Origin: Candidatus Falkowbacteria bacterium S5_I03
GTDB taxonomy: Bacteria > Patescibacteriota > Patescibacteriia > Patescibacteriales > UBA12465
Assembly: GCA_019248265.1 (NCBI GenBank)
Contig: JAEHGX010000004.1
Coordinates: 9,495 to 73,494 of the forward strand
Direction: 5' to 3'
DNA length: 64,000 bases
Position 1 is the stretch's first letter. Every line of letters starts with the position of its first letter. Below are positions 2,858-55,808 of this stretch, piece after piece. The notes below the pieces were generated by a model. That model worked only from the letters and a program-made list of their open reading frames with translations, searched no databases and was not told the DNA's origin. A program made the position numbers and the translations under genes.

Positions 2858-2863
2858 GAATTT

Positions 2864-5332: not shown

Positions 5333-5339
5333 AGACGCT

Positions 5340-5834: not shown

Positions 5835-5844
5835 ATATTTATAA

Positions 5845-6147: not shown

Positions 6148-6175
6148 AAGTAAATAAAACCTAAGCTAATCACAA

Positions 6176-6207: not shown

Positions 6208-6222
6208 TGAAAAAACACAAAT

Positions 6223-6633
6223 ATGGCACATAAGAAAGCCGCCGGCTCAACCTCTCTCGGACGCGAATCAGAGAGTAAGCGTCTTGGCGTAAAACTAACA
6301 GATGGCGAATGGGCAAAAACCGGCTCAATCATTATCAGACAACGTGGAACTAAATATCATCCTGGCGTTAATGTCAAAAAAGGCAATGATGATACTTTGT
6401 TTGCTATGCAGTCCGGTTTCGTTAAGTTCTCCACTAAAAAATTAAAGAAGTTCGACGGTAATTTAAAAACCACCAAAATTGTTGGTGTTTATCCAATGAC
6501 TGAAGCCAAGCGCGCTGAATTAAAGAAATTTGCCGAAGCTGCCTTAGAAAGAAAAAAGAAATCAGCCGTTAAAAATGCGGCCAAAAACAAAACTGTTAAA
6601 AAGGTTGTCAAAAAGAAGGCTGTTAAAAAATAA
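6223..6633 (+). CDS. rpmA: 50S ribosomal protein L27 with a Lys-rich C-terminal extension
   Basis: [37 protein letters not shown]. The ~45 extra C-terminal residues are rich in K/A/V. Confidence 0.9.
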
Positions 6634-6654
6634 ACCTCAATTATAGAATTATAG

Positions 6655-6683
6655 AAAAAGACCGGTATAACCGGTCTTTTTTG
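6655..6683. terminator. bidirectional intrinsic terminator (rpmA / pyrG)
   Basis: AAAAA-GACCGG-tataa-CCGGTC-TTTTTT. Confidence 0.7.
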
Positions 6684-6702
6684 TGTTTATTTTTAGCTAA
6701 GA

Positions 6703-8406: not shown

Positions 8407-8426
8407 GAAACCTCGTCGCCTACAAG

Positions 8427-9662: not shown

Positions 9663-9663
9663 A

Positions 9664-10266
9664 TTATTTTCTAATTATTTTTAAACCCCCGCCTCGCAAG
9701 TCCACCAAGCGCGATGGCTTTTTTCTCCTAGCTACACCGGTATTGATTATTAAATCCGGTTTATTTTTTCCGAAAAAAATATTATCTAATTTATCAACCG
9801 CAATTAGCGGGGCTTCGCCGCTTAAATTTAAGCTGGTAGAAATGATAGGGAGATTGGCTTTCTTTATTATTTTAATTAAAAAATCAGATTTAGGCAAACG
9901 ACAAGAAAGTCCGCCAGAATCACTAATAATTTCTGCCGGCAAATTATTTTTCGCTCTTAAGATTACGGTGGTCGGCCGCGCCTTAGCGGACCATAATTTC
10001 TTTAAAAGTTCCGCCTCCGGTTTCACTAGTTGGACGTATCGCTTGGCCATGGCAACGCTGGAAACTAAAGTTATCAAAGGCTTGTGCCCTTCTCTTTTTT
10101 TTAATTTAAATATTTTTTTAATAGCCTCACGGTCAGTCGCCAAGCAACTAAGTCCGTAGATAGTATCAGTCGGCAAGACTAAAATTTTACCGGCATGAAG
10201 ATAAACGGAAATCAAATCAAAATCCGAGGGCTTAAAGTCAGCCAATTTTTTTTCTATTTTTATCAT
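9664..10266 (-). CDS. tsaC: L-threonylcarbamoyladenylate synthase (YrdC/Sua5 family)
   Basis: VLPTDTIYGLSC motif; 200 aa. Confidence 0.8.
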   Translation of the reverse strand: MIKIEKKLADFKPSDFDLISVYLHAGKILVLPTDTIYGLSCLATDREAIKKIFKLKKREGHKPLITLVSSVAMAKRYVQLVKPEAELLKKLWSAKARPTTVILRAKNNLPAEIISDSGGLSCRLPKSDFLIKIIKKANLPIISTSLNLSGEAPLIAVDKLDNIFFGKNKPDLIINTGVARRKKPSRLVDLRGGGLKIIRK

Positions 10267-10273
10267 GCTGCTT

Positions 10274-10789
10274 TTAAATAATTGACTTAAGCGCCTTTAA
10301 GGCTTCCGGCAAAACTGGCAGGATAATGTCCACAACTTTCAATAACCATGGGGCAATTACTGATTTAGTTAAACTATCACCCAATAAATTGCCGATGATT
10401 GCGTAGCGAGAAGCTACAAAAACTAGCAAACCCAAAAACAAAGAACCCTCCAGTAAACCGAGCAGGGCTCCTAAAATATTGTTGAGATAACGACTGCCGG
10501 GAATAATTGCCAGTAAATTAAAAACTTTTTCAATTAAAAAGAAGATTAAATTAGTCAAACTGCTGGCCACAATAAACAAAATAATAAAGGCGGCAATTTT
10601 GCCTCCCGCCTCATGGTTAGCGACCAATGAACGGCCCCATTCAAAAAAAGTTAAATAAAAATGACTGGCAACATAAGCGCCGATAATTAGACCGATTATT
10701 CTACCAACGGAGCGAATTAATCCTTTTTTTAAACCACTAAATACAAAGATTGCCAGAATAACGGCTAAAACGATGTCAAAAATTATCAT
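10274..10789 (-). CDS. CvpA family membrane protein
   Basis: Four TM segments and the typical start MIIFDIVLAVILAIFVFSGLKKGLIR. Confidence 0.7.
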   Translation of the reverse strand: MIIFDIVLAVILAIFVFSGLKKGLIRSVGRIIGLIIGAYVASHFYLTFFEWGRSLVANHEAGGKIAAFIILFIVASSLTNLIFFLIEKVFNLLAIIPGSRYLNNILGALLGLLEGSLFLGLLVFVASRYAIIGNLLGDSLTKSVIAPWLLKVVDIILPVLPEALKALKSII

Positions 10790-10793
10790 ATTT

Positions 10794-12233
10794 TTAAGTT
10801 AACCTCGGAAACAAAGCTGTTCCCTTGGTAATTTGTGAAGTTAAAAATTGTTTTTGAATTTTTTGCGCAGCCTCCGGAATAAAAGGTTCCAATAAATAAG
10901 CGAGATTTAAAATTGTTTGCGCCAATGGTTTTAAAGATTTAGCAATCTCTTGGCTATCGGTCATCTTCCAAGGCGTTTCCCGACTTAAAGTTTCATCGCT
11001 CGCTTTAATTTTTTCCCAAATTACTTGCAAGGCTTCATTAAATTTATAGGCGTTCATCGCCTCTTTAAAAGCCCCGATTGTTTTTTTAATATCTGAATTT
11101 TCAAGTTCAATTTTTAAATCAGTCTTAATGGCATTTTTTTCTAATAAATTAGAAACGCGCGCCGCCAGATTTCCTAAACCATTAGCTAAATCGGCATTAT
11201 AACGCGTACGAAATTTATCTTCCGAATAATCGCCATCTTCAAACGGAGACATCTCGGCAAGTAAATAATAACGCACGGCATCGCTACCATATTTCTCGAC
11301 CAATTCAAACGGATCAATCGTGTTGCCGGCGCTTTTACTGATTTTGGCGCCGTTAACCGTCAGGAAGCCAAAAACTAAAACTTGGGTAGAGTTGGCTAAA
11401 CCAGCCGACATCAACATTGCTTGCCACATAGCCGCCTGCGGACGCAGATTATCCTTACCGCAAACCTGTAATCCTGGCCAATATTCTTTAAAATTAGCTT
11501 CATCTTCCGGCCAACCAAGAGTAGAAATATAGTTAACTAAAGCATCAAACCAAACATACATTACCTGACTTTCATCTCCGGGAACAGGCACGCCATGCGG
11601 CATTTTTTCTTTCTGGCGAGAGATACTAAAATCTTGCAAACCGGAAGCGACAAAAGCTTCAATCTCCTTTAAACGGCTGGCCGGCAAAACAAAGTGTGGA
11701 TTATTTTTATAAAGCGCGCTTAACTGATCCTGGTATTTAGAGAAACGAAAAAAATAATTTTCTTCATCAATAATTTCCAAATCCATATTGGCATGCAGAG
11801 GACAGCGTCCATTTTCCAGTTCTGAATCCGTTTTTTCCATTTCACAGCCGACACAATATTTTACTTGATAGTTCTTTTTATAAATATCGCCATTTTTTTC
11901 ACAACGTCGCCAGAATTCTTGAGCGGCCGCGACATGGTGCTCATCAGTAGTGCGAATAAACTTATCATAACTCAAATTCAAAGCCTCCTTTAAAGGTTTA
12001 AATTTAGCCGAATACAAATCACAATATTCCTGGACCGGCATTTCCATTGCCTTGGCCTTCATAAATATTTTTAAACCGTGTTCATCAGTGCCGGTATTAA
12101 AAAATACCTCGTCGCCTAACTGGCGTCGATAACGGGCGATGACATCCGCCTTAATAATTTCCGCGGCAAATCCGATATGCGGCTCGGAATTAATATAAGG
12201 CAAAGTAGTTGTAATATAAAAATTTTTATTCAT
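10794..12233 (-). CDS. metG: methionyl-tRNA synthetase
   Basis: TTLPYINSEPHIGFAAE (HIGH region), Zn knuckles CVGCEM..CPLH, and KISKSAGN (KMSKS). Confidence 0.9.
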   Translation of the reverse strand: MNKNFYITTTLPYINSEPHIGFAAEIIKADVIARYRRQLGDEVFFNTGTDEHGLKIFMKAKAMEMPVQEYCDLYSAKFKPLKEALNLSYDKFIRTTDEHHVAAAQEFWRRCEKNGDIYKKNYQVKYCVGCEMEKTDSELENGRCPLHANMDLEIIDEENYFFRFSKYQDQLSALYKNNPHFVLPASRLKEIEAFVASGLQDFSISRQKEKMPHGVPVPGDESQVMYVWFDALVNYISTLGWPEDEANFKEYWPGLQVCGKDNLRPQAAMWQAMLMSAGLANSTQVLVFGFLTVNGAKISKSAGNTIDPFELVEKYGSDAVRYYLLAEMSPFEDGDYSEDKFRTRYNADLANGLGNLAARVSNLLEKNAIKTDLKIELENSDIKKTIGAFKEAMNAYKFNEALQVIWEKIKASDETLSRETPWKMTDSQEIAKSLKPLAQTILNLAYLLEPFIPEAAQKIQKQFLTSQITKGTALFPRLT

Positions 12234-12936
12234 ATTTATTTTTGGAGTTTGGTTTTTTAATAATCACCACAAATTCACCTTTTAAATTATTAGCGTCTTT
12301 GAGCAGTTCGGCTAAAATTTCCGCGGCACTGCCCTCATAAAGACTTTCAAACATTTTAGTGAGCTCGCGACCAACGCTTAACTGATAGGGATTTTTATGA
12401 TCATTAAAAGTTTCCAATTCTTCCAAAAGTTTAACAATCCGATGTTTTGATTCATAAACAATTACCGGATAGCTGCTGGCGCTAATTTCTTTGAGCATGG
12501 TCTGTCTTCCCTTCTTGTGTGGCAAAAATCCTAAGAATAAAAAGCGATCAAACCCTATGCCGGCAATAGAAATAGCTGTGGTCAGCGCGCTTGGTCCGGG
12601 GACGCTTTCTATTTTAACGCTCTCGCCTAACTTTTCCCTGACTATAGAGACTAGCTTACCTCCCGGATCAGAGATTCCGGGCGTACCCGCGTCAGTTACT
12701 AAAGATAAATTTTTTCCCTCTTCTAGAAGGGCTAGAATTTTATCGACTTTAAGTTCTCCGGAATGCTGGTGATAGGAAATAGTTGGAGTTTTAATTTCAT
12801 AATTATCCAAAAGTTTGCGGGTCACTCGCGTATCTTCGCATAAAATAAAATCCGACTCTTTAAAAATTCTTAAAGCGCGTAAACTGATATCCTCTAAATT
12901 TCCAATCGGGGTACCGACAACCCTTAATATCCCCAT
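12226..12936 (-). CDS. rsmI: 16S rRNA (cytidine1402-2'-O)-methyltransferase
   Basis: GTPIGNLEDISLRAL and CEDTRVTRKLL. Overlaps metG by 8 nt. Confidence 0.85.
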   Translation of the reverse strand: MGILRVVGTPIGNLEDISLRALRIFKESDFILCEDTRVTRKLLDNYEIKTPTISYHQHSGELKVDKILALLEEGKNLSLVTDAGTPGISDPGGKLVSIVREKLGESVKIESVPGPSALTTAISIAGIGFDRFLFLGFLPHKKGRQTMLKEISASSYPVIVYESKHRIVKLLEELETFNDHKNPYQLSVGRELTKMFESLYEGSAAEILAELLKDANNLKGEFVVIIKKPNSKNKYE

Positions 12937-12938
12937 AA

Positions 12939-14666
12939 TTATTCCATGTTATCGCGACGTTCACGGACATATTTAGTCCAGTCCTCAGCCACTTCCACCA
13001 AAATTTTAAATGGCGCTTCAATAATAAAATCGAAAATAAAGATAAAGATATTAACGCGTGACATATTATTTGACAACCAGCGTCCGACTAAAATAATCGG
13101 CATATAGAACAAATCGATAATAAAGGTGCCTAAATTTTCTTGACGCTCAATAATCATTAAATCCTTGACACCGCGGGAAACAATAATACTGAAGAAGCTC
13201 ACAAAGGCCAAAAAGAATAAGAAAATAGTAATACTTACCCAATTGAAACCAATAAAGCTTAGGCCCTTAATAATAATATAAAGCGAGAATAGAAATGAAG
13301 CCGAATAAATAAGATTAAAAATCGCGCTGGCCCAAAAACCTCTTTTGCGTTGCAGGCGTAAAATTAACGGCTGCTTCTTCTCACGGCCAATAAAAGAAAT
13401 TTCCTTGATACCCTCAACAATCATGTCAGTATTATTTTTCTGTGGCTTTTGCGTCATCAAAACAATAAAAAATAATAAAACGGCCGGAAAAGCAACATTA
13501 ATCGCCAGCGAAATTGGATTTAAAGGCTCCTTAAACCAGTGGATAGCCGGGACTTCAATCAAAAAGACGAAGATGGACTTGGTTAAGAAAATATAGATAA
13601 TACTACGCATCGCTGCCCGCCATAAACGTGATTTAGCTTTGCCATACTTTCTTTCACAGGTTTTGCGGACCAAGTTTAGAAAGCCTTTTTCGCCTTTTTG
13701 AATTTCGGCATAAACTTTAGCCGGGTCGCTTTCTACTGTTTCCAGGAGAACATTAAAATATAAAGAGTAACGTCTGACGATTTTATCCAGTTGTTTGGCC
13801 AGCGGATGAACTAACTGGGCCTCAATCTTATCATTAAGCTCTTTGATATTGGCGGCGATTTTCTGAATATTTTTCTCATCGTCGGCGCTAAATTTATCAT
13901 TATGCCCAATCTCCAGCCATGAGTCATTATAATATTTAAACAAAACAAAACTAAGCATTTCCTTATCAAATTTTAAAAACTTCCGACCAATACTCAAATA
14001 AATTTGAATTTCTAAATCATCCTCGTAAGGCAATTCTTTAGGCAGAACAATATCGCTTGATAAAATATCAAACATGTTACTGACAATCACCTGCTTAGTT
14101 TTATTGGGTGCTAAAATTTCCTCAATTTCACAAGCCGCCATATTAAGCAGCCAGCGAACCAGGCTATTTTTTTCGTTCAAATGATCCTTAGCCTCAACAA
14201 TATCGGAATGAATATTTAGAGATGGCACCAATTTAGCGGAAATTTTATTTTTTAAACTGATATATTTTTCCAACAATAAAGCTACTTCGAGAATTTTAGT
14301 TTCTGGAACTTTATTATTTGGTAAATATCCGCCTCTAATGAGTTCTACTAATAGATGATGAGATAGCGCTTCACTGCTGGCGTCTTTTAAGAAGCCCTCA
14401 ATTACCACCTGGCGGTGTAATATTCTAGCAATTGCGTTCTTGCGCAAGAGATGGTCTTCTTCGTAATCAACCGCATTTCTCACTTTTTCATAAACAAAGG
14501 CCAAGCGCGAAATTAATTGCGAAACTCTAATAACTGGGGCATCCTGATCCGGTTCCTCTTTGACATTTTGTTCGCTATAGATAACTTGAAAAAGCTTCTT
14601 AGTATTACTATTAATTTCCACGGGCTCATCGGCCTCTTTACGTCTAATCAAATTTGGGCTAACCAT
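12939..14666 (-). CDS. hypothetical membrane protein (soluble N-terminal ~350 aa plus 4-5 C-terminal TM helices)
   Basis: 575-aa ORF tightly packed with rsmI (2-nt gap). No family recognised. Confidence 0.6.
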   Translation of the reverse strand: MVSPNLIRRKEADEPVEINSNTKKLFQVIYSEQNVKEEPDQDAPVIRVSQLISRLAFVYEKVRNAVDYEEDHLLRKNAIARILHRQVVIEGFLKDASSEALSHHLLVELIRGGYLPNNKVPETKILEVALLLEKYISLKNKISAKLVPSLNIHSDIVEAKDHLNEKNSLVRWLLNMAACEIEEILAPNKTKQVIVSNMFDILSSDIVLPKELPYEDDLEIQIYLSIGRKFLKFDKEMLSFVLFKYYNDSWLEIGHNDKFSADDEKNIQKIAANIKELNDKIEAQLVHPLAKQLDKIVRRYSLYFNVLLETVESDPAKVYAEIQKGEKGFLNLVRKTCERKYGKAKSRLWRAAMRSIIYIFLTKSIFVFLIEVPAIHWFKEPLNPISLAINVAFPAVLLFFIVLMTQKPQKNNTDMIVEGIKEISFIGREKKQPLILRLQRKRGFWASAIFNLIYSASFLFSLYIIIKGLSFIGFNWVSITIFLFFLAFVSFFSIIVSRGVKDLMIIERQENLGTFIIDLFYMPIILVGRWLSNNMSRVNIFIFIFDFIIEAPFKILVEVAEDWTKYVRERRDNME

Positions 14667-45889: not shown

Positions 45890-46732
45890 ATGAAAAAATC
45901 TCTGTTAATTATTATTGTTTTAATTGCTGCCAGTGCCTTTTTATTTTACACCAAAAAAGAAACACAAATTATTATTGAAGAGCCTAAAAAGTTAGAGACG
46001 GACGAAATAATATTAGCCAGTAGCACTGAACCTATTGTTTCAGAAACCGACGAAGAAGAACCCGCGCTAGAACCAATCGCCGCAAGCACAGAGACCGCAA
46101 CTACAACCACGACCAAAACGGAAAAAGAAACAGAAATCAAAACTACGGAAATTAATTTAGATGTGCCCTTTTCTTCACAGGCTCCATTTAGTGACTGGTC
46201 CGAGCCTTATCAAAATGCCTGCGAAGAAACGGCTAGTCTAATGGTTGCTAAATATTATCAAAAAGCCACACTGACGCCAGCAATCGCCAAACAAGAAATC
46301 CTGGATTTAGTCGCCTGGGAAAATAAAACTTTCGGCTATTACGAAGATACAACCGCCCAGGAAACGGCTCAAATTTTACAGGACTATTATAATTTTAAGC
46401 GCGTAGATGTCATCTATGATTTCAGCCTGAATGACCTTAAGGCGCAGCTTCTGGCCGGCCGACCAATAATCATTCCCGCCTCTGGACAGATGTTAAAAAA
46501 TCCTAATTTCAAGCAACCGGGACCGATTTACCACATGCTAGTTATAAAGGGCATAACAAAAACTGGTGACTTTATCACTAATGATAATGGCACCAGAAAA
46601 GGTCATAACTATATTTATAAGCCGGACATTCTTTACGCGGCAATTCATGACGCGCCTCAAGGCGGACACTCAATCAACAAGGCAGACTTAGATAGCAATC
46701 GGAAAGCAATGATTGTCGTTTATCCCAATTAA
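45890..46732 (+). CDS. secreted C39-like (papain-fold) peptidase domain protein
   Basis: Signal/TM, acidic Thr-rich linker, then DVPFSSQAPFSDWSEPYQNACEETASLMVAKYY (Cys nucleophile context) and a distal ..HMLVIKG. Confidence 0.5.
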   Translation: MKKSLLIIIVLIAASAFLFYTKKETQIIIEEPKKLETDEIILASSTEPIVSETDEEEPALEPIAASTETATTTTTKTEKETEIKTTEINLDVPFSSQAPFSDWSEPYQNACEETASLMVAKYYQKATLTPAIAKQEILDLVAWENKTFGYYEDTTAQETAQILQDYYNFKRVDVIYDFSLNDLKAQLLAGRPIIIPASGQMLKNPNFKQPGPIYHMLVIKGITKTGDFITNDNGTRKGHNYIYKPDILYAAIHDAPQGGHSINKADLDSNRKAMIVVYPN

Positions 46733-46747: not shown

Positions 46748-47182
46748 TTATTTTATCTTAGAAGCTAAGGAAATAATTTTAGCCGATAAAGACTTGATTT
46801 CCGAAGCTGTTAATATTTTTCGCGGAATTCCGTGAGCATCAACATCACCAATACGGATATTCGGTATTAAATGATAATGCAGATGTTTGATGCTTTTATC
46901 AGAATCCGGCCCCTCTCTAACTAAAATTGAGAAACTGTCATATTTCAATTTTTTTAATATCTGTGCCCCGATTTTTACCAAAGCGGCAATATCTTTATCT
47001 TCCTGGGCGCTGAGATTAAAAAAAGAAACAACATGTCTTTTAGGAATAACCAGCAAATGATGTGAGTGATAAGGCGCCTTGGAATAAGTTAAATAAGCGC
47101 TTTCATTATCAATAAACATGCGCTTCTTGGCTTTGCAAAATGGGCAGGACTTAATCTTTTTTAAATAATCGTGGTAGAACAT
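46748..47182 (-). CDS. HIT family protein
   Basis: IKHLHYHLIP histidine triad and N-terminal CPFC. Confidence 0.75.
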   Translation of the reverse strand: MFYHDYLKKIKSCPFCKAKKRMFIDNESAYLTYSKAPYHSHHLLVIPKRHVVSFFNLSAQEDKDIAALVKIGAQILKKLKYDSFSILVREGPDSDKSIKHLHYHLIPNIRIGDVDAHGIPRKILTASEIKSLSAKIISLASKIK

Positions 47183-47983: not shown

Positions 47984-48520
47984 TTAAAACACTGTTCGCA
48001 AAAAATTTGCAATCTTAGCCCAAGTAATTCGCCAACGCTTGGCGTAGACATAAATTTCCGCGTTAACGTTATCGTGGTCGTAATGCCCGCGATAAACAAA
48101 ACCGGAGTTTTGCAAATTTTTAACTGGCTGATTATTCCCGTCTTTAACTAAAGTGCGGATTTTAAACAAACCATTTTGCAGGCAAAATTTAAGGCGATGC
48201 TCAATTAATATCCGATGATATCCGCGCTGGCGAAAATTCGGAAAAACATAAGCATTGGTCAAAACCGCCACCTCAGCTTTAAAATAAAAAGCTTGATTGC
48301 CATCCTGGTCGTAGAAACTAAGACCGCCTAAAGCTGCCAACTGACCATTCTTGATAACGGCAAAAAACTTACTGCCTTTTTTCTGCCACTCGCAACAATC
48401 GTGAATATTGTTCTGATAAAAGAACTCTCGATCATGAGCGGCAAAGAAGGCTAGGGTCCGTCTTAGCTCGCCGAGGCTTAGCTCGGAAATTTCTGAAGCT
48501 CGGACATTAGAGGTGTTCAT
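47984..48520 (-). CDS. GNAT family N-acetyltransferase
   Basis: ..YVFPNFRQRGYHRILIE.. (acetyl-CoA loop). Overlaps the upstream gene by 4 nt. Confidence 0.7.
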   Translation of the reverse strand: MNTSNVRASEISELSLGELRRTLAFFAAHDREFFYQNNIHDCCEWQKKGSKFFAVIKNGQLAALGGLSFYDQDGNQAFYFKAEVAVLTNAYVFPNFRQRGYHRILIEHRLKFCLQNGLFKIRTLVKDGNNQPVKNLQNSGFVYRGHYDHDNVNAEIYVYAKRWRITWAKIANFLRTVF

Positions 48521-49431
48521 TGTTTTCGGAAATTAAAATCCGATTCTAACACCGGCTCGATGGCCATCAAAGTAATGTAGGTTGTTTCTTCGCCATCGAT
48601 TGCGGCCAACATGATGCTCATGGAATTTAGGCCGAGAAAATATTCCCGCCCCTCAAAAGTGACTACCGCCGAACCGCCATACATGCCGATTATTTCTTCA
48701 GACATAATATTGGGGATACGGACAACATACATCCCTGATTTTGATTTAGCATTTTCTTCGGCGCCTTCGTAAGGATAGCGAGCAGAACGCTGAATGAGTT
48801 TTTGATCATGCGGATTAAGATAATAGACCGTCCCTCTAATTGTGTAGCGATAGACTTGTTTATCTCCGCGAAAACAATTAAGCAACTTAATTGTGCAAGG
48901 AGAATCATCCAGCCTGGGATTAACTTTTTCCAGGAGCGGATAAGAAATCGGAGTCTGTTCAAAATTATTAGCAGCAAACATGATTAGGTCTCCCTTAGAA
49001 AAAATTTTAAATTCATTTTGCTTTAAAGCGTCTCCTAAATCTAAATTTTCGCCACGCATGCGTTTAGGCATAACGGCGTAAGCGGAGCTATCAACTGCCA
49101 ACAAAGTTAGGTTGCAATGATTCATCAGATTCCAAATACTATCCTGTCCTTGGGATAAGCTCCTGAGATTAGGAATAGCCGTCAAAGCCTTATTATCTTC
49201 CGGCCAAGTGACCGCAAAAACTAGACTTCCAGGAAAATCCTGAATCATTTCCTCGTTCAAAACTTCCTTAGCGATTGAAGCTTCGGAAAAGTTAGTAATT
49301 CGGTTGATGCTCTCCAGAGAGAATTGGGGCACAATCTTTTCTGTCAAAGAAAACATGAAAATAACTATGGCGATGATTAAGCACACGCCAGTAATCATAG
49401 CTAAAGGACGTAAAGGTTTTTTTGCTTCCAT
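48517..49431 (-). CDS. hypothetical membrane-anchored protein (304 aa)
   Basis: N-terminal TM PLAMITGVCLIIAIVIFMF. First gene behind promoter module A. Confidence 0.55.
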   Translation of the reverse strand: MEAKKPLRPLAMITGVCLIIAIVIFMFSLTEKIVPQFSLESINRITNFSEASIAKEVLNEEMIQDFPGSLVFAVTWPEDNKALTAIPNLRSLSQGQDSIWNLMNHCNLTLLAVDSSAYAVMPKRMRGENLDLGDALKQNEFKIFSKGDLIMFAANNFEQTPISYPLLEKVNPRLDDSPCTIKLLNCFRGDKQVYRYTIRGTVYYLNPHDQKLIQRSARYPYEGAEENAKSKSGMYVVRIPNIMSEEIIGMYGGSAVVTFEGREYFLGLNSMSIMLAAIDGEETTYITLMAIEPVLESDFNFRKQ

Positions 49432-49567: not shown

Positions 49568-50029
49568 ATGCTTAATCAAAAGAATAACAAAAGGCTATCT
49601 GCACTAATAAAAATAAGGTCTGGTAACCAGGCTGATTTCCGTTTTATTTGTGCCTTAAGCAGGCGCAACATGGAAAAATACACTAAGGAAATTTGGGGCA
49701 ACTGGGATGGTTCAAGGTTCAAAGCGAATCTTAATCCAAAGCGGCTAAAATTAGTAATAAAAAACGGCAGACGAGCAGGCTTCTTCGATATAGAGACTAA
49801 AGGAGCAGAATCTTATCTGCATAATATTCAGCTATCGCGCCCTCTACAAGGCAAGGGATTGGGAAAAATGTTAATGTCAAAAATAGAGGCGGCTGAAAAA
49901 AAAGCGGGCGCCAAAAAAATCACAGCCAACGTCTTTAAAAACAACCCCGCTAAAGAATTTTATAAAAAAATCGGCTACAAGATAATAAAACAAAAAGGGG
50001 CCGTCCTAACTATCGGCAAAGATTTATAA
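49568..50029 (+). CDS. GNAT family N-acetyltransferase
   Basis: ..LQGKGLGKMLM.. acetyl-CoA loop; 153 aa. Confidence 0.75.
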   Translation: MLNQKNNKRLSALIKIRSGNQADFRFICALSRRNMEKYTKEIWGNWDGSRFKANLNPKRLKLVIKNGRRAGFFDIETKGAESYLHNIQLSRPLQGKGLGKMLMSKIEAAEKKAGAKKITANVFKNNPAKEFYKKIGYKIIKQKGAVLTIGKDL

Positions 50030-50617
50030 ATTTTTAAAGAAAATGGATTTAGCGGCGTTCACTAGTCCCTTTCTTATTTCAACATCATAAATAGCAAAAA
50101 ATTTAGATTTAATTCCTTGAAAAGATTTTTGATTATGATAGTTTAGCTTGTTAACTGCTACACAAACGGACGAAACCTTAATTCCTAACTTATCAAAAAC
50201 TTTTACGGCTGCCTCGATACTGCCGCCCGTAGAATAAAGACAATCAACAATCGCGACTTTTCTCACTTTAAGATTATCCAAAGAAAAAAATACATCCCGG
50301 CTATAATAACCGGTTTTTTGTTTAAACTTAATAATTTTCTTAAGATTATAGTGAAAAGGTTTTGCGCAGACAAATGGCTTACCAAGCAAAGCGGCAACTT
50401 TATAAGCCAAAAAGGCGCCATCCATTTCAAAAGAAAAAATTAAATCCGCTTCCCCGCCTATCTTTTTAGCCATCTGCTTGGCCAAATAATCTAGCTCCTT
50501 TGGGTTAGTGGGCACTAATCCCTTATAAGGATAAACGAAATATTCGTAAGCGTTATCGGTTTTATAAACCGGCGCACGCTCTAAATTCTTTCTTATTGTT
50601 TCAAAAGTATTAGCCAT
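50024..50617 (-). CDS. phosphoribosyltransferase (type I PRTase fold) family protein
   Basis: PRPP-binding-like loop VAIVDCLYSTGGS. The start is taken at MANTFE (50617), 1 nt after the upstream stop. Confidence 0.65.
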   Translation of the reverse strand: MANTFETIRKNLERAPVYKTDNAYEYFVYPYKGLVPTNPKELDYLAKQMAKKIGGEADLIFSFEMDGAFLAYKVAALLGKPFVCAKPFHYNLKKIIKFKQKTGYYSRDVFFSLDNLKVRKVAIVDCLYSTGGSIEAAVKVFDKLGIKVSSVCVAVNKLNYHNQKSFQGIKSKFFAIYDVEIRKGLVNAAKSIFFKNL

Positions 50618-50618
50618 A

Positions 50619-51401
50619 TTATTTTTTAATATTTTGCTTATAATAATCAACCAGAGCGCCCAAAACTAAAGGCAAGATAATACTAAAAGCGGCCTCTAAT
50701 TTCTGTCGATGATCACGACGAGTCGGAACACCTTTTAAATCGTCTTCACCTTTTTCATGCGCCGGCAAATCTACCGGAATATTAACCGCAGCAACTGGAA
50801 TTTTTCTAAATTGACAGACAGAAAAGATGGCCGCCGTATCCATTTCAATAGTTAACACGCCAAGTTGGGCGAGTTCTCGTAAAAGGGCGGGATTTTCACG
50901 CCAGCGCCCGTCAGTGGTAACTGTAATACCGAATTGAAAAGGGAGATTATTTTTTTTAAAAGAAGTGGCTAAAGCGGCATTCAATCCTGCATCGGAAATA
51001 ATCGGAAAACCGGCCGGCAGATAATGCTTAGATGTTCCTTCATCACTAAAACAAGCGGTACTAATAACCGGATGAAATAATTTTAAATTAGCAGAAAGTC
51101 CGCCGCAAGTTCCAACACGAACAATCGCCTTGGCTCCATAAACCCGCAAACGCTCGGTTATGCAGGCCGACATGCTTGCGCCCCGATCGGCAATACAAGC
51201 AATATCTAAACCGCCGAGGTTGATATGTAAAACCTCATCTTGACTATGATCATAAGAAATACGAAGACTTTTCGGATATAAGCGCTGTAATAAATCAAGC
51301 CAAAAAGGAGTTTCTAAAACCAAACCGATATCTGTTTTCCTTTTTACTTCAATACCATTTTTACGCATAATTTTATTTTTAAAATAAAAGGCGCCAAACA
51401 A
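50619..51401 (-). CDS. nucleoside phosphorylase-fold (PNP_UDP_1 family) protein
   Basis: RVGTCGGLS, IEMDTAA. An alternative start is MRKNG at 51368. Confidence 0.65.
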   Translation of the reverse strand: MFGAFYFKNKIMRKNGIEVKRKTDIGLVLETPFWLDLLQRLYPKSLRISYDHSQDEVLHINLGGLDIACIADRGASMSACITERLRVYGAKAIVRVGTCGGLSANLKLFHPVISTACFSDEGTSKHYLPAGFPIISDAGLNAALATSFKKNNLPFQFGITVTTDGRWRENPALLRELAQLGVLTIEMDTAAIFSVCQFRKIPVAAVNIPVDLPAHEKGEDDLKGVPTRRDHRQKLEAAFSIILPLVLGALVDYYKQNIKK

Positions 51402-51413
51402 ACAGCGCCCTTT

Positions 51414-52400
51414 TTAAGTTATTAATTTAATCGCATTCTGAAAAAAAATTGCATTACGATTATAATCGCTATCAGCCCCAGAGGCTTGCAAGGCGGCTCT
51501 AATCGCCGAGAGAGATTGCAGAAAAACCATGTTTCCTGGCTTTAGTGCCAATTTAGAAAACCTAGAATCAAGCCAGGGCCAAGCAAATCCCGGTAAAAAC
51601 AAGGTTTGTTCTTCGTGTCTGATAAATTCCCCCCTTAAATACCCGAAGGGGGCGTCACTCCCAAATATAATTCTCTTACAGCCAATAATCTTAACTGCCG
51701 CCAAAACCGACTCGGGGTCAGTAACCATGGCGGTATCAAAGAAAACATTGCTAAAGGGTCGGAGTGTTTCCAGCGCAGACGGCAACTGTTCATTAAATAA
51801 GAAAGCGCCGCCCAAATGAGCAATAATAAAATTAATCCATCGGTATTTATTAGCTAAAAATGCCAACTCCGAGGCGTTCTGCCAAACATTCTGCGGCAGA
51901 TGAATAATAAGAAACCGGTTCCCAAAATTAAGCCATTCCCAGGTCTCTTTAGAAAAATGCTTAGAAATTTCATCGTTCCCTCCCTGTGTTCGGATTTTTG
52001 TCTTAATTCCGTTAACATTTCGGAAGGGCTGCCAGTCAACCTGGTTTACCAAAGAAGATGTTAAACAAGGAATAGGATAAATTTCCATCGGCCTTGGTCT
52101 GAGACGATAAAGATTAAAATTATTCTGACTTTCATCAGGAGAAAATGGTAAGCCGAAAGCCACCGCCTGATAAAAAGATGGAACAAAATCAAACTTTTCT
52201 AACACTAATCGATGAGTATTAAGATCAAACCAATTAAATGTCTGCCCCGGATTTTTGGCTGAATGATTAAATATATCCAACCCGTCATTATTAAGATGAA
52301 GATGAAAATGACAATCAATAATACGATGAGGCAACCAATTCTTTAAACCGGCAAACAATTCTAAATCGTTCGCCATCGGCAATAATTTTGATACATCCAT
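51414..52400 (-). CDS. amidohydrolase-fold (TIM-barrel metal-dependent hydrolase) protein
   Basis: IIDCHFHLHL (HxH), ..IIAHLGG.., ..FGSDAPF. Confidence 0.65.
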   Translation of the reverse strand: MDVSKLLPMANDLELFAGLKNWLPHRIIDCHFHLHLNNDGLDIFNHSAKNPGQTFNWFDLNTHRLVLEKFDFVPSFYQAVAFGLPFSPDESQNNFNLYRLRPRPMEIYPIPCLTSSLVNQVDWQPFRNVNGIKTKIRTQGGNDEISKHFSKETWEWLNFGNRFLIIHLPQNVWQNASELAFLANKYRWINFIIAHLGGAFLFNEQLPSALETLRPFSNVFFDTAMVTDPESVLAAVKIIGCKRIIFGSDAPFGYLRGEFIRHEEQTLFLPGFAWPWLDSRFSKLALKPGNMVFLQSLSAIRAALQASGADSDYNRNAIFFQNAIKLIT

Positions 52401-52434
52401 GATTATTTTGTTTTTAAAGAAATTACTATTTAAA

Positions 52435-53487
52435 TTACTTACTATACTTCCAACAATAAGGATCTTCAGCTAACAAATCATTATTAATAAGCAAGGCTCT
52501 AGCTCGACAACCGCCGCAGATAAAACGATCGCAACAAGAACCGCAGTGGCCGGAGTATTCCCGGCTCAAGAGCTGTTTTACTCCTTTAATTTTTTCTCGG
52601 TCATTCCAAATATCAACTAATGACTGCTGATAAAAATCACCTAAAACTATATCCTGGAGAAAAGTACAAATTCCAATTTTACCGTCACATCTAACATGAA
52701 TCATGTCCTGGCCAGCTGTACAGCCACTAATCACTTTACCAGAATAAACATCGCCGAACTCTTTTAATTTAGCCATAATCTTAGGATCAGCCAAATGATA
52801 AAGAGGGTCCTGGCAATTTATTACCATCTTAATTTTTCTTTTTTCCCTCTGAACGCTCAGCTCTTCTAAGAATTTGCGATATTCTTCCGGTGTAATAACA
52901 AAAATTGGATTGGCGCCATTGGCGCGCCCGGTAAAAATAGCCGCTCTGGCTAGGAAAGTATCTACTCCAAGTTCCTCTAACATGTCTAAGGTTGAGGATA
53001 AATCATTCATATTAAGCCGAGTGACCGTGAATTCCACATGGACTTTTATACCCAGCTTCTTTAAGATTTTTATAGAATTAATTGCTTTCTGCAAGGCGCC
53101 ATCTAAATTTCTGATTTTATCGCTTATTTCCGGCTTGGAGCCATCCAGACCAACGCCGAAAGAATAGAGGCCGGCATCTTTAAGTTTCTTAGCCAAGTCC
53201 TCAGTAAGTAATAAGGAATTACTTTGAATTCTAACCTTAATCCCTTGTTTAGTTGCTTCCTTAACAATCTCTACAATATCAGGTCGCAAAAGAGGCTCAC
53301 CGCCAGTAAGGGCGAGAGTCGGACAGCCAAGCTCTTTCAATTCTCGAATGAGCCTAACCATGTCCTTCCCTTTTATTAAATTATTCTCTAAAGTCTGAGG
53401 CGAAGCGGCTGCACGACAATGGATACAACACAAATTACATCTTTGAGTAAGTTCCCAAAGAGCGTAGTGCAAATTATTATTTGCCAT
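52435..53487 (-). CDS. radical SAM enzyme with a C-terminal SPASM-type auxiliary-cluster domain
   Basis: WELTQRCNLCCIHC (CX3CX2C), GGEPLL, and C-terminal GCTAG..CDGKIGIC.. and CGSCCDRFICGGCRA. Confidence 0.85.
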   Translation of the reverse strand: MANNNLHYALWELTQRCNLCCIHCRAAASPQTLENNLIKGKDMVRLIRELKELGCPTLALTGGEPLLRPDIVEIVKEATKQGIKVRIQSNSLLLTEDLAKKLKDAGLYSFGVGLDGSKPEISDKIRNLDGALQKAINSIKILKKLGIKVHVEFTVTRLNMNDLSSTLDMLEELGVDTFLARAAIFTGRANGANPIFVITPEEYRKFLEELSVQREKRKIKMVINCQDPLYHLADPKIMAKLKEFGDVYSGKVISGCTAGQDMIHVRCDGKIGICTFLQDIVLGDFYQQSLVDIWNDREKIKGVKQLLSREYSGHCGSCCDRFICGGCRARALLINNDLLAEDPYCWKYSK

Positions 53488-53503
53488 ATTAAATTATACA
53501 AAA

Positions 53504-53531
53504 ATGACTTATTAATTTCTTAATAAGTCAT
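53504..53531 (-). terminator. intercistronic hairpin plus U-run between the peptide gene and the rSAM gene (probably a leaky terminator)
   Basis: Minus strand: ATGACTTATTAA-gaaa-TTAATAAGTCAT (12-bp perfect stem) followed by TTTTGT. Confidence 0.55.
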
Positions 53532-53537
53532 CGCTAT

Positions 53538-53651
53538 TTAGTCAAACAGACAGGAGCATTCTCTAACAACAATAGTGGAGGTGTCTTTATCAGACTCAGT
53601 TGTTGTGCCCAGCCATTCTTGCTGAACAGTTGTTGCTTGAACTTCTTGCAT
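53538..53651 (-). CDS. candidate RiPP-type precursor peptide (37 aa)
   Basis: Below the ORF-track cut-off. ATG at 53651, TAA at 53540-53538: MQEVQATTVQQEWLGTTTESDKDTSTIVVRECSCLFD. Own promoter upstream, rSAM/SPASM gene 50 nt downstream. Confidence 0.55.
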   Translation of the reverse strand: MQEVQATTVQQEWLGTTTESDKDTSTIVVRECSCLFD

Positions 53652-53676
53652 ATATTTTTTATTAAATTATAATTTT

Positions 53677-53704
53677 ATTTTAATACTTGCAATATTTTTG
53701 TCAA
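53677..53704 (-). promoter_or_regulatory. sigma70-type promoter for the peptide-rSAM operon
   Basis: Minus strand: TTGACA (53704-53699), 16-nt spacer, TAAAAT (53682-53677). Confidence 0.55.
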
Positions 53705-53705
53705 G

Positions 53706-53734
53706 TTGACAGAAACATTAAATAATTATAAAAT
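53706..53734 (+). promoter_or_regulatory. sigma70-type promoter for the PheS-like gene
   Basis: TTGACA (53706-53711), 17-nt spacer, TAAAAT (53729-53734). The two -35 boxes form the palindrome TGTCAAgTTGACA. Confidence 0.55.
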
Positions 53735-53780: not shown

Positions 53781-54890
53781 ATGCAAGAGGTAATCAAAAA
53801 AAGCTTGGAGCTGAGAGACTTATCAGATCCTGCTCAAGGAAAACACGCGATCAACCTAATGATTGATCTTATCTACCAGAAGTTGGAAGAAATTCCCGAT
53901 TGTCCTAAGCCGGAAATAAGGCGTTCCAGCCCCATAACAACGGTGGCTGATAACTTTGACCGGCTCTACTTCCCGCCAGACAATTTAAGCCGTTCTAAGA
54001 CTTATACCAGATATCTGGACGAGAAAACACTTCTGCGAACTCACACCACTGCGCAAATTCCAGAAATTTTGGAAGAATTAAGCTTATCACGGCCGGATGA
54101 TTTCTTGGTTATGTGCCCAGGAATTTGTTTCCGACGCGATGTCATTGACCGAAAACATGTCGGCGAGCCGCACCAAATGGATATTTGGCGCATAAAAAAA
54201 GGGCTTCCCCGTATAACCAGAGAAACCTTGTTGACATTCGTCCAATCGGTAGTAGAAGCAATAAAACCTGGAGCGAAATTCCGCGCCAACGAAGTTGAGC
54301 ACCCTTACACCGATCGAGGATTAGAAATCGAAATCCTCATCAACGGCGACTGGCTGGAAATAATGGAATGCGGCGAAATTAAAAGCCGCCTACTCTCTGA
54401 TTCCGGATTAAATCCGGAAGAATATTCAGGCCTGGCAATGGGCTTGGGCTTAGACAGGCTGGTAATGATTATCAAACGGATAGACGATATCAGATTACTA
54501 AGAGCCTCTAATCCTAAAATTAAGGCTCAGATGGAAGACTTATTAGTCTATCGCCCAGTTTCAAAATTCCCGCCGATTAAACGCGACATTTCAATCTCTG
54601 TAGACGAAAATCAAACCGAAGAAGATGTCTGCGAATCAGCCAGAGAAACCCTGCAAAACCGGATAGAGGCTTTGGAAGAATTACAAATAATTTCTACAAC
54701 TGCCTACACCGAGCTTCCGCCGCAAGCGATTGAAAGATTAAAAATCTCTCCCGGACAAAAAAATCTCCTGTTGAGATTAACTTTCCGCTCGCACGAAAAA
54801 ACGCTTTCCCAAGAAGAAGCTAATGAAATGCGGGATGCAATCTATCGCGCCCTGGATCAAACCGAAGGCGGCGGATATATTAAAAAATAA
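53781..54890 (+). CDS. PheS-like class II aminoacyl-tRNA synthetase catalytic core fused to an FDX-ACB-like C-terminal domain
   Basis: LRTHTTAQIPE, motif-2-like ICFRRDVIDRKHVGEPHQMDIW and motif-3-like GLAMGLGLDRLVMI. C-terminal SKFPPIKRDISISV...LTFRSHEKTLSQEEAN resembles the ferredoxin-fold anticodon-binding domain. Confidence 0.65.
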   Translation: MQEVIKKSLELRDLSDPAQGKHAINLMIDLIYQKLEEIPDCPKPEIRRSSPITTVADNFDRLYFPPDNLSRSKTYTRYLDEKTLLRTHTTAQIPEILEELSLSRPDDFLVMCPGICFRRDVIDRKHVGEPHQMDIWRIKKGLPRITRETLLTFVQSVVEAIKPGAKFRANEVEHPYTDRGLEIEILINGDWLEIMECGEIKSRLLSDSGLNPEEYSGLAMGLGLDRLVMIIKRIDDIRLLRASNPKIKAQMEDLLVYRPVSKFPPIKRDISISVDENQTEEDVCESARETLQNRIEALEELQIISTTAYTELPPQAIERLKISPGQKNLLLRLTFRSHEKTLSQEEANEMRDAIYRALDQTEGGGYIKK

Positions 54891-55061: not shown

Positions 55062-55808
55062 TCAGATGATATGCATCATTTGATAAATGGTGCCCTCGAC
55101 GACAATCAAGCCCCGGGCTTGCAAGTAGAGTACAACAGGAACGGTATTAACAACAATGTTATCGCCCGGGAAATCCACACAAATGAATATTTTTCCGGTT
55201 TCATTTATGACTAAACAGCGATCAAGAATTTCTTTGCCATTCTCCTTAAAATACACCTGAATACATTCACCCAAATTTTCAAAACGCCCAAATGTCAATC
55301 CGAGCAGATGGCAAATAAATGCTAAATCTTCCTCATTGATTTCATCAACCTTGATAACTCTCTTGTCCGCAGTTTCCGTTTCCGCCGCTTCTGCCGATTC
55401 TTTATTAAGACCAAGAGACAAAAAGATGCCCACCATTTCCTCAACAGTGTTATCGCTGCCCCAGCTCTTTTTATAAAAACCGTCGATGTGTTCCGGTCGG
55501 GGATCATACATGGAGAACACATAAACTTTAGCTGCGGGGTTAATCTTCTTAATTTCTTCCGCCAGCTTAGAACCATCCTTTTCCTGATCGGAAAATTTTA
55601 CATTACGCTCATCATGGAACTGATCGCTAGTGATAACCACCAGCTCGCAATCTTTCGGAACCTCATTTAGAGTATTCTCGAAATCTCGCTGATAAGAGAT
55701 GACGTCATTTAATTCCGGAAAAACGGTCCGCAGTTTCTCGCGAATAAGCTTCAACGCCTCGGGGTTAGATTGAACAATAATAATTTTTCGCATTGTTAAC
55801 TCCTCCAA
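55062..55808 (-). CDS. hypothetical protein with a degenerate receiver (CheY-like)-looking N-terminal half
   Basis: KIIIVQSNPEALKLIREKL.. has a flavodoxin-like beta-alpha pattern but lacks the acidic pocket (QS instead of DD). Second gene of unit B. Confidence 0.45.
   Translation of the reverse strand: MEELTMRKIIIVQSNPEALKLIREKLRTVFPELNDVISYQRDFENTLNEVPKDCELVVITSDQFHDERNVKFSDQEKDGSKLAEEIKKINPAAKVYVFSMYDPRPEHIDGFYKKSWGSDNTVEEMVGIFLSLGLNKESAEAAETETADKRVIKVDEINEEDLAFICHLLGLTFGRFENLGECIQVYFKENGKEILDRCLVINETGKIFICVDFPGDNIVVNTVPVVLYLQARGLIVVEGTIYQMMHII

Follow-up and report, generated by a model that had tools for sequence, protein, structure and literature searches.

This analysis concerns a group of genes around a 37-codon open reading frame (ORF) in a 64,000-nucleotide stretch of contig JAEHGX010000004.1 from Candidatus Falkowbacteria bacterium S5_I03; the whole stretch is referred to below as the window. 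On the minus strand, the short ORF heads an operon in which it is followed by genes for a radical S-adenosylmethionine (rSAM) enzyme with a SPASM domain, an amidohydrolase of the Amidohydro_2 family, a protein with the fold of nucleoside phosphorylases (PNP-like) and a type I phosphoribosyltransferase (PRTase) (Table 1). The gene for SrmL, a protein related to phenylalanyl-tRNA synthetase (PheRS), is transcribed divergently from this operon, and at the other end a GNAT N-acetyltransferase gene converges on, and abuts, the PRTase gene. We consider it highly probable that these seven genes, from 49568 to 54890, form one module. Its limits are fixed by locus L108 (rSAM 84% identical), which repeats the identical seven-gene block amid different flanks, with LeuRS and NIF3 genes on one side and an AspRS gene on the other. 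The initial annotation of this DNA had placed the ORF, a promoter, the rSAM gene, the folds of the downstream products and the gaps between the genes where we find them. However, its span of 50024 to 53704 was too narrow, since SrmL and GNAT recur as partners in related loci and were both left out. The Pfam assignments of the rSAM, amidohydrolase, PNP-like and PRTase proteins are all above the gathering thresholds. With the longest ORFs, the gaps downstream of the rSAM and amidohydrolase genes are 34 nt and 12 nt; with the ATG starts, which the orthologues in L108 suggest by their lengths, the gaps ahead of the PNP-like and PRTase genes become 45 nt and 1 nt.

As judged by its conservation, the 37-aa ORF, which translates as MQEVQATTVQQEWLGTTTESDKDTSTIVVRECSCLFD, is a genuine precursor-type gene and not a chance ORF, and we consider it very probable that it represents a real precursor together with its rSAM enzyme. 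A homologue lies immediately 5' of the rSAM gene in 13 of 13 related loci (L001-L004, L014-L017, L022 and L105-L108; 14 of 14 with the window), over a range of rSAM identities to the window of 39-100%. A profile search of 5.8 billion proteins returned 28 called genes, which encode 36-72 aa and reach E-values as low as 4e-16, and an index-free exhaustive HMMER search of 1.84 billion representatives of 50% identity clusters gave 27 true peptide clusters. The family consensus is M-(polar)-TVQxEWMGxT-(8-14 acidic/polar residues)-[VI]V[VI][RK]E-x-[SA]-C-x-F-[D/N]-stop, which the window peptide follows with its leader motif TVQQEWLG and the C-terminal core VVRE-C-S-C-L-F-D. In the alignment of the 27 sequences, the T, V and Q of the leader and the Cys at position -4 are invariant; the leader Trp is replaced by Leu or Phe in two distant peptides (L017 and P0285), position -2 is Phe with Val in one member, and the last residue is Asp or Asn, usually Asp. 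Within the conserved blocks of nine loci, nucleotide differences at codon positions 1, 2 and 3 number 170, 98 and 387, and the invariant residues carry many synonymous changes. By contrast, none of the 79 AhbD-like loci returned by a metagenome scan has such an ORF upstream. The proposal of a conserved, precursor-like peptide linked to a SPASM rSAM enzyme is thus borne out by the 13 related loci and the codon-position bias: the ORF is in frame in all relatives, and among the clade members examined the rSAM gene was never found without it. Two details of the initial annotation need correction. The ORF had been called unannotated, but the exact peptide is already a called gene in public collections. 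Of the two Cys-Asp spacings that had been pointed out, C-x2-D is conserved as C-x2-[D/N]; C-x4-D is not, because the first Cys of CSC is F, A, N, Y, T or L in other family members.

Table 1. Positions and principal evidence for the features of the module, its surroundings and related loci.
Locus	Feature	Position	Strand	Size	Evidence or remark
Window	SrmL, 'PheS-related mystery ligase'	53781..54890	+	369 aa	NCBIfam NF051887
Window	Predicted back-to-back near-consensus sigma-70-type promoters	53677..53734	both		consensus match; minus-strand promoter 53704-53677, plus-strand promoter 53706-53734
Window	Precursor peptide gene	53538..53651	-	37 aa	ORF, ATG 53651 to TAA 53538
Window	Hairpin and U-run between peptide stop and rSAM start	53498..53537	-		-14.8 kcal/mol, z = -5.9
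Window	Radical SAM/SPASM enzyme	52435..53487	-	350 aa	Pfam Radical_SAM 101.9 bits, SPASM 34 bits (>21.5); start at 53487
Window	Amidohydro_2 metal-dependent hydrolase/decarboxylase fold	51414..52400	-	328 aa	Pfam 31.5 bits
Window	PNP_UDP_1 nucleoside phosphorylase/nucleosidase fold	50619..51401	-		Pfam 105.3 bits; probable ATG start 51368
Window	Type I phosphoribosyltransferase	50024..50650	-		Pfam Pribosyltran 28.7 bits; probable ATG start 50617
Window	GNAT N-acetyltransferase	49568..50029	+	153 aa	RimI/Naa40-type N-alpha-acetyltransferases closest
Window	h304	48517..49431
Window	Second GNAT	47984..48520
Window	HIT protein	46748..47182	-
Window	Peptidase_C39_2	45890..46732	+
Window	h248	55062..55808
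Window	Type IV secretion coupling-protein-like gene	2864..5332	-
L002	Type IV secretion pilin, adjoining the module	5341..5727	+
L004	Shortened rSAM (P0031)	5866..6786
L014	ArgRS	4215..5756
L016	Peptide/rSAM pair and neighbouring genes	1..7173, 9101..10063			pair 46% identical
L017	Peptide/rSAM locus	4611..8611			rSAM 39% identical
L018	Class I LysRS	7876..9429
L018	Two rSAM genes	9422..11590
L021	Three rSAM genes, methyltransferase-like protein, epimerase	8167..13031
L021	PheRS-like protein	13152..14294	-
L105	Class IIa synthetase	3937..5184
L106	TyrRS	5411..6610
L106	PheRS-like protein	7296..8483	-
L107	SerRS	1870..3153
L108	LeuRS	2223..4682
L108	AspRS	11459..13249
L110	SrmL, WP_005882727.1	8974..10092			annotated hypothetical
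L111	SrmL, truncated	9001..9645

Two promoters, both predicted by consensus match, lie back to back between the peptide operon and SrmL. The minus-strand promoter (TTGACA-16-TAAAAT) faces the peptide operon and the plus-strand promoter faces SrmL; each fits the consensus at 11 of 12 positions, and the two -35 boxes together form a palindrome. The rSAM gene starts 50 nt past the peptide stop, and this interval holds a stable hairpin followed by a U-run, which the initial annotation did not mention. Equivalent hairpins follow the peptide gene in L001, L002 and L106; that of L003 is weaker, and L105 lacks one. By analogy, the hairpin looks like a leaky terminator or attenuator of the type common after precursor genes, and its placement between peptide and enzyme would be the usual layout for making more precursor transcript than enzyme transcript. 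An Rfam scan gave nothing credible. A sub-threshold match to the SSRC10 small RNA (window 53498-53604, minus strand; 30.9 bits against a gathering threshold of 56, E = 0.019) covers the 3' portion of the peptide gene together with the hairpin and is probably driven by the latter alone.

The rSAM enzyme has its CxxxCxxC motif (CNLCCIHC) at residues 17-24 and a complete seven-Cys SPASM region. Across 26 clade members, nine cysteines (C17, C21, C24, C256, C274, C315, C318, C324 and C327) never vary, and a tenth, C345, is kept in at least 90%. No NCBIfam model reaches its cut-off for this protein. The best match is AhbD (222 bits, cut-off 500), followed by TIGR04053 (201.5 bits, cut-off 395) and NirJ2 (193.5 bits, cut-off 500); the NirJ-type models score 157-194 bits (cut-offs 500-650), PqqE (TIGR02109) 107.6 bits (cut-off 381) and MftC (TIGR03962) 106.8 bits (cut-off 265). 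AhbD and NirJ are the closest named relatives, with the same length and SPASM layout, and the rSAM could in principle be an ordinary tetrapyrrole enzyme of this type, with the small ORF and the neighbouring genes unrelated to it. In a search of the 5.8-billion-protein database, approximately 50 clusters extend from 97% down to approximately 39% identity, below which the matches level off as 'heme b synthase' proteins at approximately 35% identity. In a neighbour-joining tree, however, the full-length clade members cluster together (42 of 42, plus one extra sequence), and the mean distance between this clade and the AhbD-like set is 0.73, compared with 0.44 and 0.34 within the two groups. Moreover, the scores are far below the AhbD and NirJ cut-offs, the peptide precedes the gene in every clade member examined and in 0 of 79 AhbD-like loci, and there are no other haem, sirohaem or tetrapyrrole genes in or near the module. 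We therefore give virtually no credence to the tetrapyrrole explanation, which, at the level of sequence comparison, is already contradicted by the scores, the separation of the clade, the peptide linkage and the gene context. By the same comparisons, the rSAM clade is a distinct, always peptide-linked offshoot of the AhbD/NirJ branch, and the possibility raised beforehand that the enzyme groups firmly with AhbD/NirJ is not borne out. Its origin in that branch nevertheless suggests what chemistry to expect, and the oxidative decarboxylation of side-chain carboxylates by AhbD and NirJ is a plausible chemical model for the terminal Asp or Asn of the peptide.

Because the leader motif of the peptide is conserved, some protein must read it. 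The rSAM begins at its cluster motif and has no N-terminal domain, and no protein of the module has a Pfam match of the RiPP recognition element (RRE) type, where RiPP stands for ribosomally synthesised and post-translationally modified peptide.

A scan of reference genomes with the rSAM sequence returned four close loci: L001 (88% identity, from a record labelled Candidatus Falkowbacteria), L004 (77%) and L002 (76%), both from records labelled as metagenome-assembled genomes of uncultured Gammaproteobacteria, and L003 (64%, Parcubacteria group). The label of L002 may be a binning error. A metagenome scan with the rSAM alignment gave mostly AhbD-like proteins of approximately 30% identity, and among the matches listed only L022 belongs to the clade. 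No clade members were found in a scan of viral contigs or in a phage search.

We scored the presence of each gene across the loci by tblastn and Pfam. SrmL is found in the window, L001-L004, L014 (where it is frameshifted in that assembly), L015, L105 and L108, that is, in every locus of the candidate phyla radiation (CPR) type whose contig permits testing. Relative to the peptide/rSAM pair it is found in four arrangements: it diverges from the pair in the window, L001 and L108 and converges on it in L002, L003 and L004, and in L105 and L015 it is co-directional, upstream in the former and downstream in the latter. GNAT is present in the window, L003, L004, L014, L022, L105 and L108; in L108 it converges on the PRTase gene, as in the window, in the other five loci it lies directly 3' of the rSAM gene, and in three relatives (P0010, P0017 from L015, and P0027) it is fused to the rSAM. 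The amidohydrolase occurs in the window, L001, L003, L014, L015, L105 and L108. The minimal locus, L002, consists of just the peptide, rSAM and SrmL genes, between DnaK/HrcA and GyrB. The most distant variants (L016, L107 and L017) lack SrmL and have other partners, and we therefore regard the peptide/rSAM pair as the old core and SrmL, GNAT and amidohydrolase as a CPR-type elaboration.

The module has the general traits of a RiPP locus with an rSAM/SPASM enzyme, namely a conserved, co-oriented short ORF, the CxxxCxxC motif and the SPASM cysteines. The statement that no known RiPP class fits nevertheless stands up to comparison. The closest overall likeness is to mycofactocin (MftA, MftC, MftE and MftF), which shares a short precursor with a conserved C-terminal core, a SPASM rSAM enzyme acting at the C-terminus, a metal-dependent hydrolase able to release the end, tailoring enzymes of small-molecule type, the lack of an exporter and a cofactor-like conservation of the core. 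The differences are substantial, however: an MftC score above the cut-off, the GVY core and the mycofactocin partner proteins are all absent from the module. The core is C-x-F-[D/N] instead of ...GVY, the rSAM reaches less than half of the MftC cut-off, there is neither an RRE chaperone of the MftB type nor MftD, the hydrolase belongs to Amidohydro_2 and not to the creatininase family, and a ligase resembling an aminoacyl-tRNA synthetase (aaRS) and a GNAT are present. The maturases of sactipeptides and ranthipeptides (AlbA, PapB and CteB) are likewise SPASM rSAM enzymes adjoining a Cys-bearing peptide, and the invariant Cys of our peptide, two residues from Phe and three from Asp/Asn, would fit a thioether either with Phe, like that of subtilosin, or with Asp, like those that PapB forms. 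Yet none of these maturases is among the 25 best NCBIfam matches of the module rSAM, all of which are below cut-off. The module rSAM also lacks an N-terminal RRE domain, and the peptide has one conserved Cys in a single C-x2-[D/N] in which Asn may replace Asp, instead of a Cys-rich repeat or the repeated Cys-X3-Asp/Glu of ranthipeptides. For pyrroloquinoline quinone, the PqqE score is far below its cut-off and the peptide lacks the Glu/Tyr motif of PqqA (E-x3-Y).

The initial annotation placed the PNP-like and PRTase genes at the centre of the system and proposed that a cross-linked and excised peptide fragment is ribosylated or phosphoribosylated to give a peptide-derived, nucleoside-like molecule. 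Of the five operon genes whose co-occurrence it had asked about, the peptide and rSAM genes are together in 14 of 14 loci, whereas the PNP-PRTase pair is found in only three of approximately 14 (window, L108 and L003) and both genes are absent from L002, L004, L014, L015 and L105. As far as this distribution shows, the two are accessory members of the module and not its centre. In those three loci, PNP is followed directly by PRTase in an operon with module genes, in two arrangements: the pair follows the amidohydrolase gene in the window and L108 and precedes SrmL in L003. A PRTase of 27% identity, without PNP, follows the rSAM gene in the distant locus L017. There is also a precedent in hopanoid synthesis, with HpnH and HpnG, where the product of an rSAM enzyme is processed by a PNP_UDP_1 enzyme, and HpnG and HpnH were weak matches in the NCBIfam scan. 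Nevertheless, the nearest relatives of the PRTase are ordinary adenine and hypoxanthine PRTases, and the second acidic residue of its phosphoribosyl pyrophosphate motif is a Cys (VAIVDCLYSTGGS, as read from the sequence). The PNP-like protein is closest to the models of uridine phosphorylase, purine nucleoside phosphorylase (DeoD) and AMP nucleosidase, all below cut-off. We consider ribosylation of the peptide product improbable, and since the pair is facultative and of salvage type, we read it instead as a route for adenine salvage.

The amidohydrolase retains an intact metal site (HxH/H/H/D), and D29, H31, H33, H167, H195, D222 and D249 are invariant in six orthologues. Its nearest entries in the PDB are the uncharacterised hydrolases 3ij6 and 3cjp, followed, weakly, by LigY, LigJ and aromatic decarboxylases. 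A single-sequence AlphaFold2 model of the protein was unusable (mean predicted local distance difference test score 35.7).

SrmL matches NF051887 over its full length (profile positions 1-348 of 349) with 449.5 bits, well above the curated cut-off of 300. It consists of a class II catalytic core (Pfam tRNA-synt_2d) and an FDX-ACB anticodon-binding domain, which is the architecture of monomeric, mitochondrial-type PheRS, and it is closest to human mitochondrial PheRS (E = 1.7e-26). The residues of motif 2 ([YF]RRD...H.GEPHQ[ML]D) and motif 3 (SGLA.G.GLDR) are invariant among 115 family members, and all ATP-binding and adenylation residues, including the arginines of both motifs, are kept; because of this invariance, SrmL should be able to form an adenylate. 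By contrast, the cage around the phenylalanine ring has been swapped family-wide, with FPFT changed to HPYT, GCG to ECG and G[FW]AFG to GLAMG; the Thr and Ala that determine ring size are unchanged. The window protein bears the family signature residues HPYT, ECG and GEPHQ.D. It scores 114.8 bits against the PheS model TIGR00468 (cut-off 237) and 148.8 bits against the mitochondrial model TIGR00469 (cut-off 258), so that by scores and by the FPF and G[FW]AFG residues SrmL does not class as PheS or as a mitochondrial PheRS. Two CPR loci (L106 and L021) encode a further protein with the catalytic core and FDX-ACB domain of monomeric mitochondrial-type PheRS. It has FPYT, GWAFG and GAG at the cage positions and falls just under the cut-offs of both pheS_mito (234-238 bits against 258) and SrmL (239-252 bits against 300). 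This protein looks like a real PheRS, which makes SrmL a diverged paralogue, and it may be both the genuine PheRS of those bacteria and the ancestor of SrmL.

The intact catalytic core and the presence of an anticodon-binding domain raise the possibility of a cassette like that of pyrrolysine, in which the rSAM pathway would build a non-canonical aromatic amino acid on the peptide and SrmL would charge it to a tRNA for translation or for aminoacyl donation. The nearest relative of PheRS is PylRS, whose gene lies next to that for the radical SAM enzyme PylB. The SrmL pocket is aromatic but more polar, with H and Y in place of two Phe and with Thr and Ala retained. SrmL is also close to rSAM genes outside the module: in L018, two of them form an operon with a genuine class I LysRS gene near SrmL, in L021, three of them, together with genes for an epimerase and a methyltransferase-like protein, separate SrmL from the PheRS-like gene, and one is found near SrmL in L019. 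However, the 64-kb window contains no tRNA gene, and none adjoins SrmL in 17 loci, where the few tRNA genes present are ordinary and non-adjacent. The rSAM operons of L018 and L021 show no convincing precursor-like small ORF, and SrmL also occurs alone on plasmids, without biosynthetic genes. Such a cassette is accordingly very improbable. Only marginally better, and still a long shot, is the related idea that the peptide is a scaffold for a non-canonical aromatic amino acid or cofactor and that SrmL loads the product onto a tRNA or a tRNA-mimicking acceptor. If true, it would amount to a ribosomally templated route to a new aminoacyl substrate and to the first PheRS-derived enzyme in a RiPP-type pathway.

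Other aaRS paralogues provide further parallels. EpmA/PoxA (which acts on elongation factor P, EF-P), the SerRS-like amino acid:carrier-protein ligases and MshC are synthetase folds of class II or class I that ligate an activated carboxylate to a protein, thiol or small molecule, and like SrmL, EpmA and MshC have retained their adenylation residues; SrmL differs in being derived from PheRS, an origin for which our literature search gave no other case. A 2026 review of aaRS-like enzymes in natural product pathways lists the AlaRS-like AcmF and the IleRS-like SbzA and none derived from PheRS (PMC12945691). AcmF no longer has the residues for binding ATP and works with pre-charged tRNA (PMC12945691), whereas SrmL has kept them.

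We favour the reading that the module is a pathway of RiPP type, or one for a peptide-derived small molecule, and we put the probability of the full chain, as set out here, at roughly 40%. The rSAM would target the C-terminal motif of Cys(-4), Phe(-2) and Asp or Asn(-1) and either form a thioether cross-link from Cys(-4), as sactipeptide and ranthipeptide enzymes do, or oxidatively decarboxylate the terminal residue, as do AhbD and MftC. Under decarboxylation the interchangeability of Asp and Asn would be explained, because the alpha-carboxylate would matter and not the side chain. The amidohydrolase would then cut after the conserved VV[RK]E junction or otherwise trim the product, and the RimI/Naa40-like GNAT could acetylate the newly exposed amino group. 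SrmL would use ATP for a ligation to, or aminoacylation of, the modified peptide or released fragment, for which the acylation of proteins by aaRS paralogues (EpmA on EF-P and the SerRS-like carrier-protein ligases) is a precedent. The optional pair of PNP-like and adenine PRTase-like enzymes would recycle adenine from the 5'-deoxyadenosine of the rSAM reaction or the AMP of the SrmL reaction and would not decorate the product. Given the near-invariant core and the lack of an exporter or dedicated protease in the seven-gene block, we think it more likely that the product is an intracellular metabolite or resembles a cofactor, in the manner of mycofactocin or pyrroloquinoline quinone, than that it is a bacteriocin.

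Several observations weigh against this chain. We infer the steps beyond peptide plus rSAM from folds and gene linkage, and two of the proposed enzymes are absent from some loci, with amidohydrolase and GNAT both missing from L002 and amidohydrolase from L004. In L004, the rSAM (P0031) lacks its first 89 residues, including the CxxxCxxC motif, and the peptide, GNAT and SrmL genes are intact. The shortened form has 16 member sequences on five contigs, and the peptide stop nearly touches residue 90; this represents either recent decay or a function that is independent of the rSAM. As for salvage, the PNP-like protein is nearer to AMP nucleosidase, purine nucleoside phosphorylase and uridine phosphorylase than to the nucleosidases for methylthioadenosine and 5'-deoxyadenosine. 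The PNP-PRTase order persists with the module across the rearrangement between the window and L003, and a PRTase recurs in L017, so that a direct role of the pair in the product is still conceivable. SrmL is also far commoner than the peptide/rSAM pair, with more than 120 clusters above 45% identity that include Scytonema and Longimicrobiaceae, and L018-L021 have SrmL without the pair. The peptide-free proteins interleave by identity with the peptide-linked ones, as L018 is 58% identical to the window protein compared with 45-47% for L002 and L003. SrmL (515-524 bits) is also found alone on plasmids, namely an Azotobacter megaplasmid, where it lies among insertion sequence elements, and a Glutamicibacter plasmid. 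Since SrmL lives without the pair, it does not depend on this peptide, and the peptide is thereby a less convincing substrate for it.

This distribution invites a different role for SrmL within the same biosynthetic core, namely self-protection or resistance against a translation-targeting product. The product, whole or as a processed fragment, would block an aminoacyl-tRNA synthetase or some other component of translation, SrmL would be an insensitive enzyme of PheRS type or would bind or modify the toxin, and GNAT might be a second immunity factor, like MccE and RimL for microcin C. SrmL retains the full architecture of a stand-alone monomeric PheRS, with its anticodon-binding domain and adenylation residues. 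Divergent, co-regulated promoters are typical of immunity genes, and SrmL and the module often lie among aaRS genes. Resistant copies of aaRS genes occur near antibiotic clusters and on plasmids, for example the mupM/mupA IleRS genes for mupirocin, and SrmL resembles them as an extra synthetase gene beside biosynthetic genes with a shared promoter region, and in being found alone on mobile elements and in resistance islands. Two of the lone plasmid genes are in such islands: on Glutamicibacter nicotianae pGnB68 (L110), SrmL lies in a resistance region with cmx and tet(33), and the Corynebacterium diphtheriae plasmid FRC0402_p2 (L111) has a truncated copy with erm(X) on one side and tet(65) on the other. 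A plasmid-borne SrmL may thus be an unrecognised mobile resistance determinant, or a hitch-hiker; the islands are on just two related actinobacterial plasmids. Resistant aaRS copies are, however, normally recognisable members of their family, whereas SrmL fails both PheRS models; because its phenylalanine cage is replaced and its scores are well below the PheRS cut-offs, SrmL is unlikely to be a mere drug-insensitive PheRS.

The same explanation draws on microcin C, in which MccE is a GNAT immunity factor. Both systems combine a ribosomal peptide ending in Asn or Asp (Asn in microcin C precursors) with an adenylate-forming enzyme, a RimI/RimL-like GNAT and nucleotide-handling genes. The module is nonetheless no microcin C locus: it has an rSAM enzyme but no ThiF/MccB-type enzyme, MccC exporter or MccF peptidase, and its peptide is 37 aa long with a leader and usually ends in Asp, compared with a heptapeptide in microcin C. 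The seven-gene block encodes no exporter, and the peptide core is almost invariant instead of being diversified as in toxin arms races. On balance, we regard self-protection as rather unlikely, although it has more in its favour than any of the other alternatives, and continue to prefer SrmL as a ligase in the pathway.

The maturation of peptides by rSAM/SPASM enzymes is well known as a kind; the set of partners and the peptide family are new. Our search of full-text literature found no description of SrmL, of a PheRS-derived enzyme in a peptide pathway or of the peptide family, and the literature on aaRS-like enzymes with RiPPs, SPASM proteins or Patescibacteria contains no description of this system. 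The module, which is found mostly in CPR bacteria, is apparently undescribed. The genomes of Patescibacteria (CPR) are very small, with hardly any specialised metabolism characterised so far, and a conserved, strongly constrained peptide-modification module is likely to be important to their biology. It also offers the first concrete genomic context for SrmL, which NCBI named a 'mystery ligase' and which occurs in several phyla and on plasmids. Should SrmL prove to act on the peptide, RiPP tailoring would gain a new kind of enzyme, one derived from PheRS. Should it prove to be an immunity gene, the pathway probably makes a new compound aimed at translation, and SrmL itself is a mobile resistance determinant that has gone unrecognised.

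The distant variants differ from the module in their partners. In L016, the peptide/rSAM pair is followed by an ABC-transporter ATPase gene and lies by ParA-like and DnaB-like genes, which suggests a plasmid- or phage-borne, exported version. The partners in L107 are a 269-aa protein of no known type and a C_GCAxxG protein. L017 is represented on many contigs and lies among transposases; its peptide is MYPEEKPETVQAELLGESPSRKILNEISCFFD, and the pair is flanked by two SAM methyltransferases, the PRTase and a carboxyl methyltransferase of the isoprenylcysteine (ICMT) type, the last of which suggests that the C-terminal carboxylate is a site of chemistry. The weakest match of the peptide profile (E = 7.7e-5) is P0286, a repeat protein of 301 aa with at least five copies of ...QVVIREISCGFGFP...; the match is probably spurious, though the repeated VVIRE-x-SC-x-F string is curious.

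The GC content of the region is even (0.37-0.42) and the rest of the window encodes housekeeping proteins such as DnaX, CTP synthase, MetRS and a DEAD-box helicase, so that the locus is chromosomal and without sign of recent transfer. Among the neighbours considered as module genes, h304, the second GNAT, h203, h248, HIT and Peptidase_C39_2 were rejected, as they are not conserved beside the module elsewhere. The HIT and Peptidase_C39_2 genes, 2.4-3.7 kb from the module, would suit a story of peptide-nucleotide conjugates or leader cleavage, and L014 has a HIT gene approximately 7 kb downstream. SerRS in L107 and LysRS in L018 were considered as substitutes for SrmL and discarded, since both score as genuine housekeeping enzymes. 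A PADLOC search of the module detected no defence system; the sole match was of the rSAM to pVip (82 bits), which reflects generic similarity of the radical SAM core, and there were no matches for PNP, PRTase, SrmL, GNAT or amidohydrolase. A type IV secretion coupling-protein-like gene is present in the window and a type IV secretion pilin gene adjoins the module in L002; such genes are common in CPR genomes. Finally, in approximately half of the loci an aaRS gene is found only a few genes away from SrmL or the module (Table 1), seemingly above chance even for small genomes.

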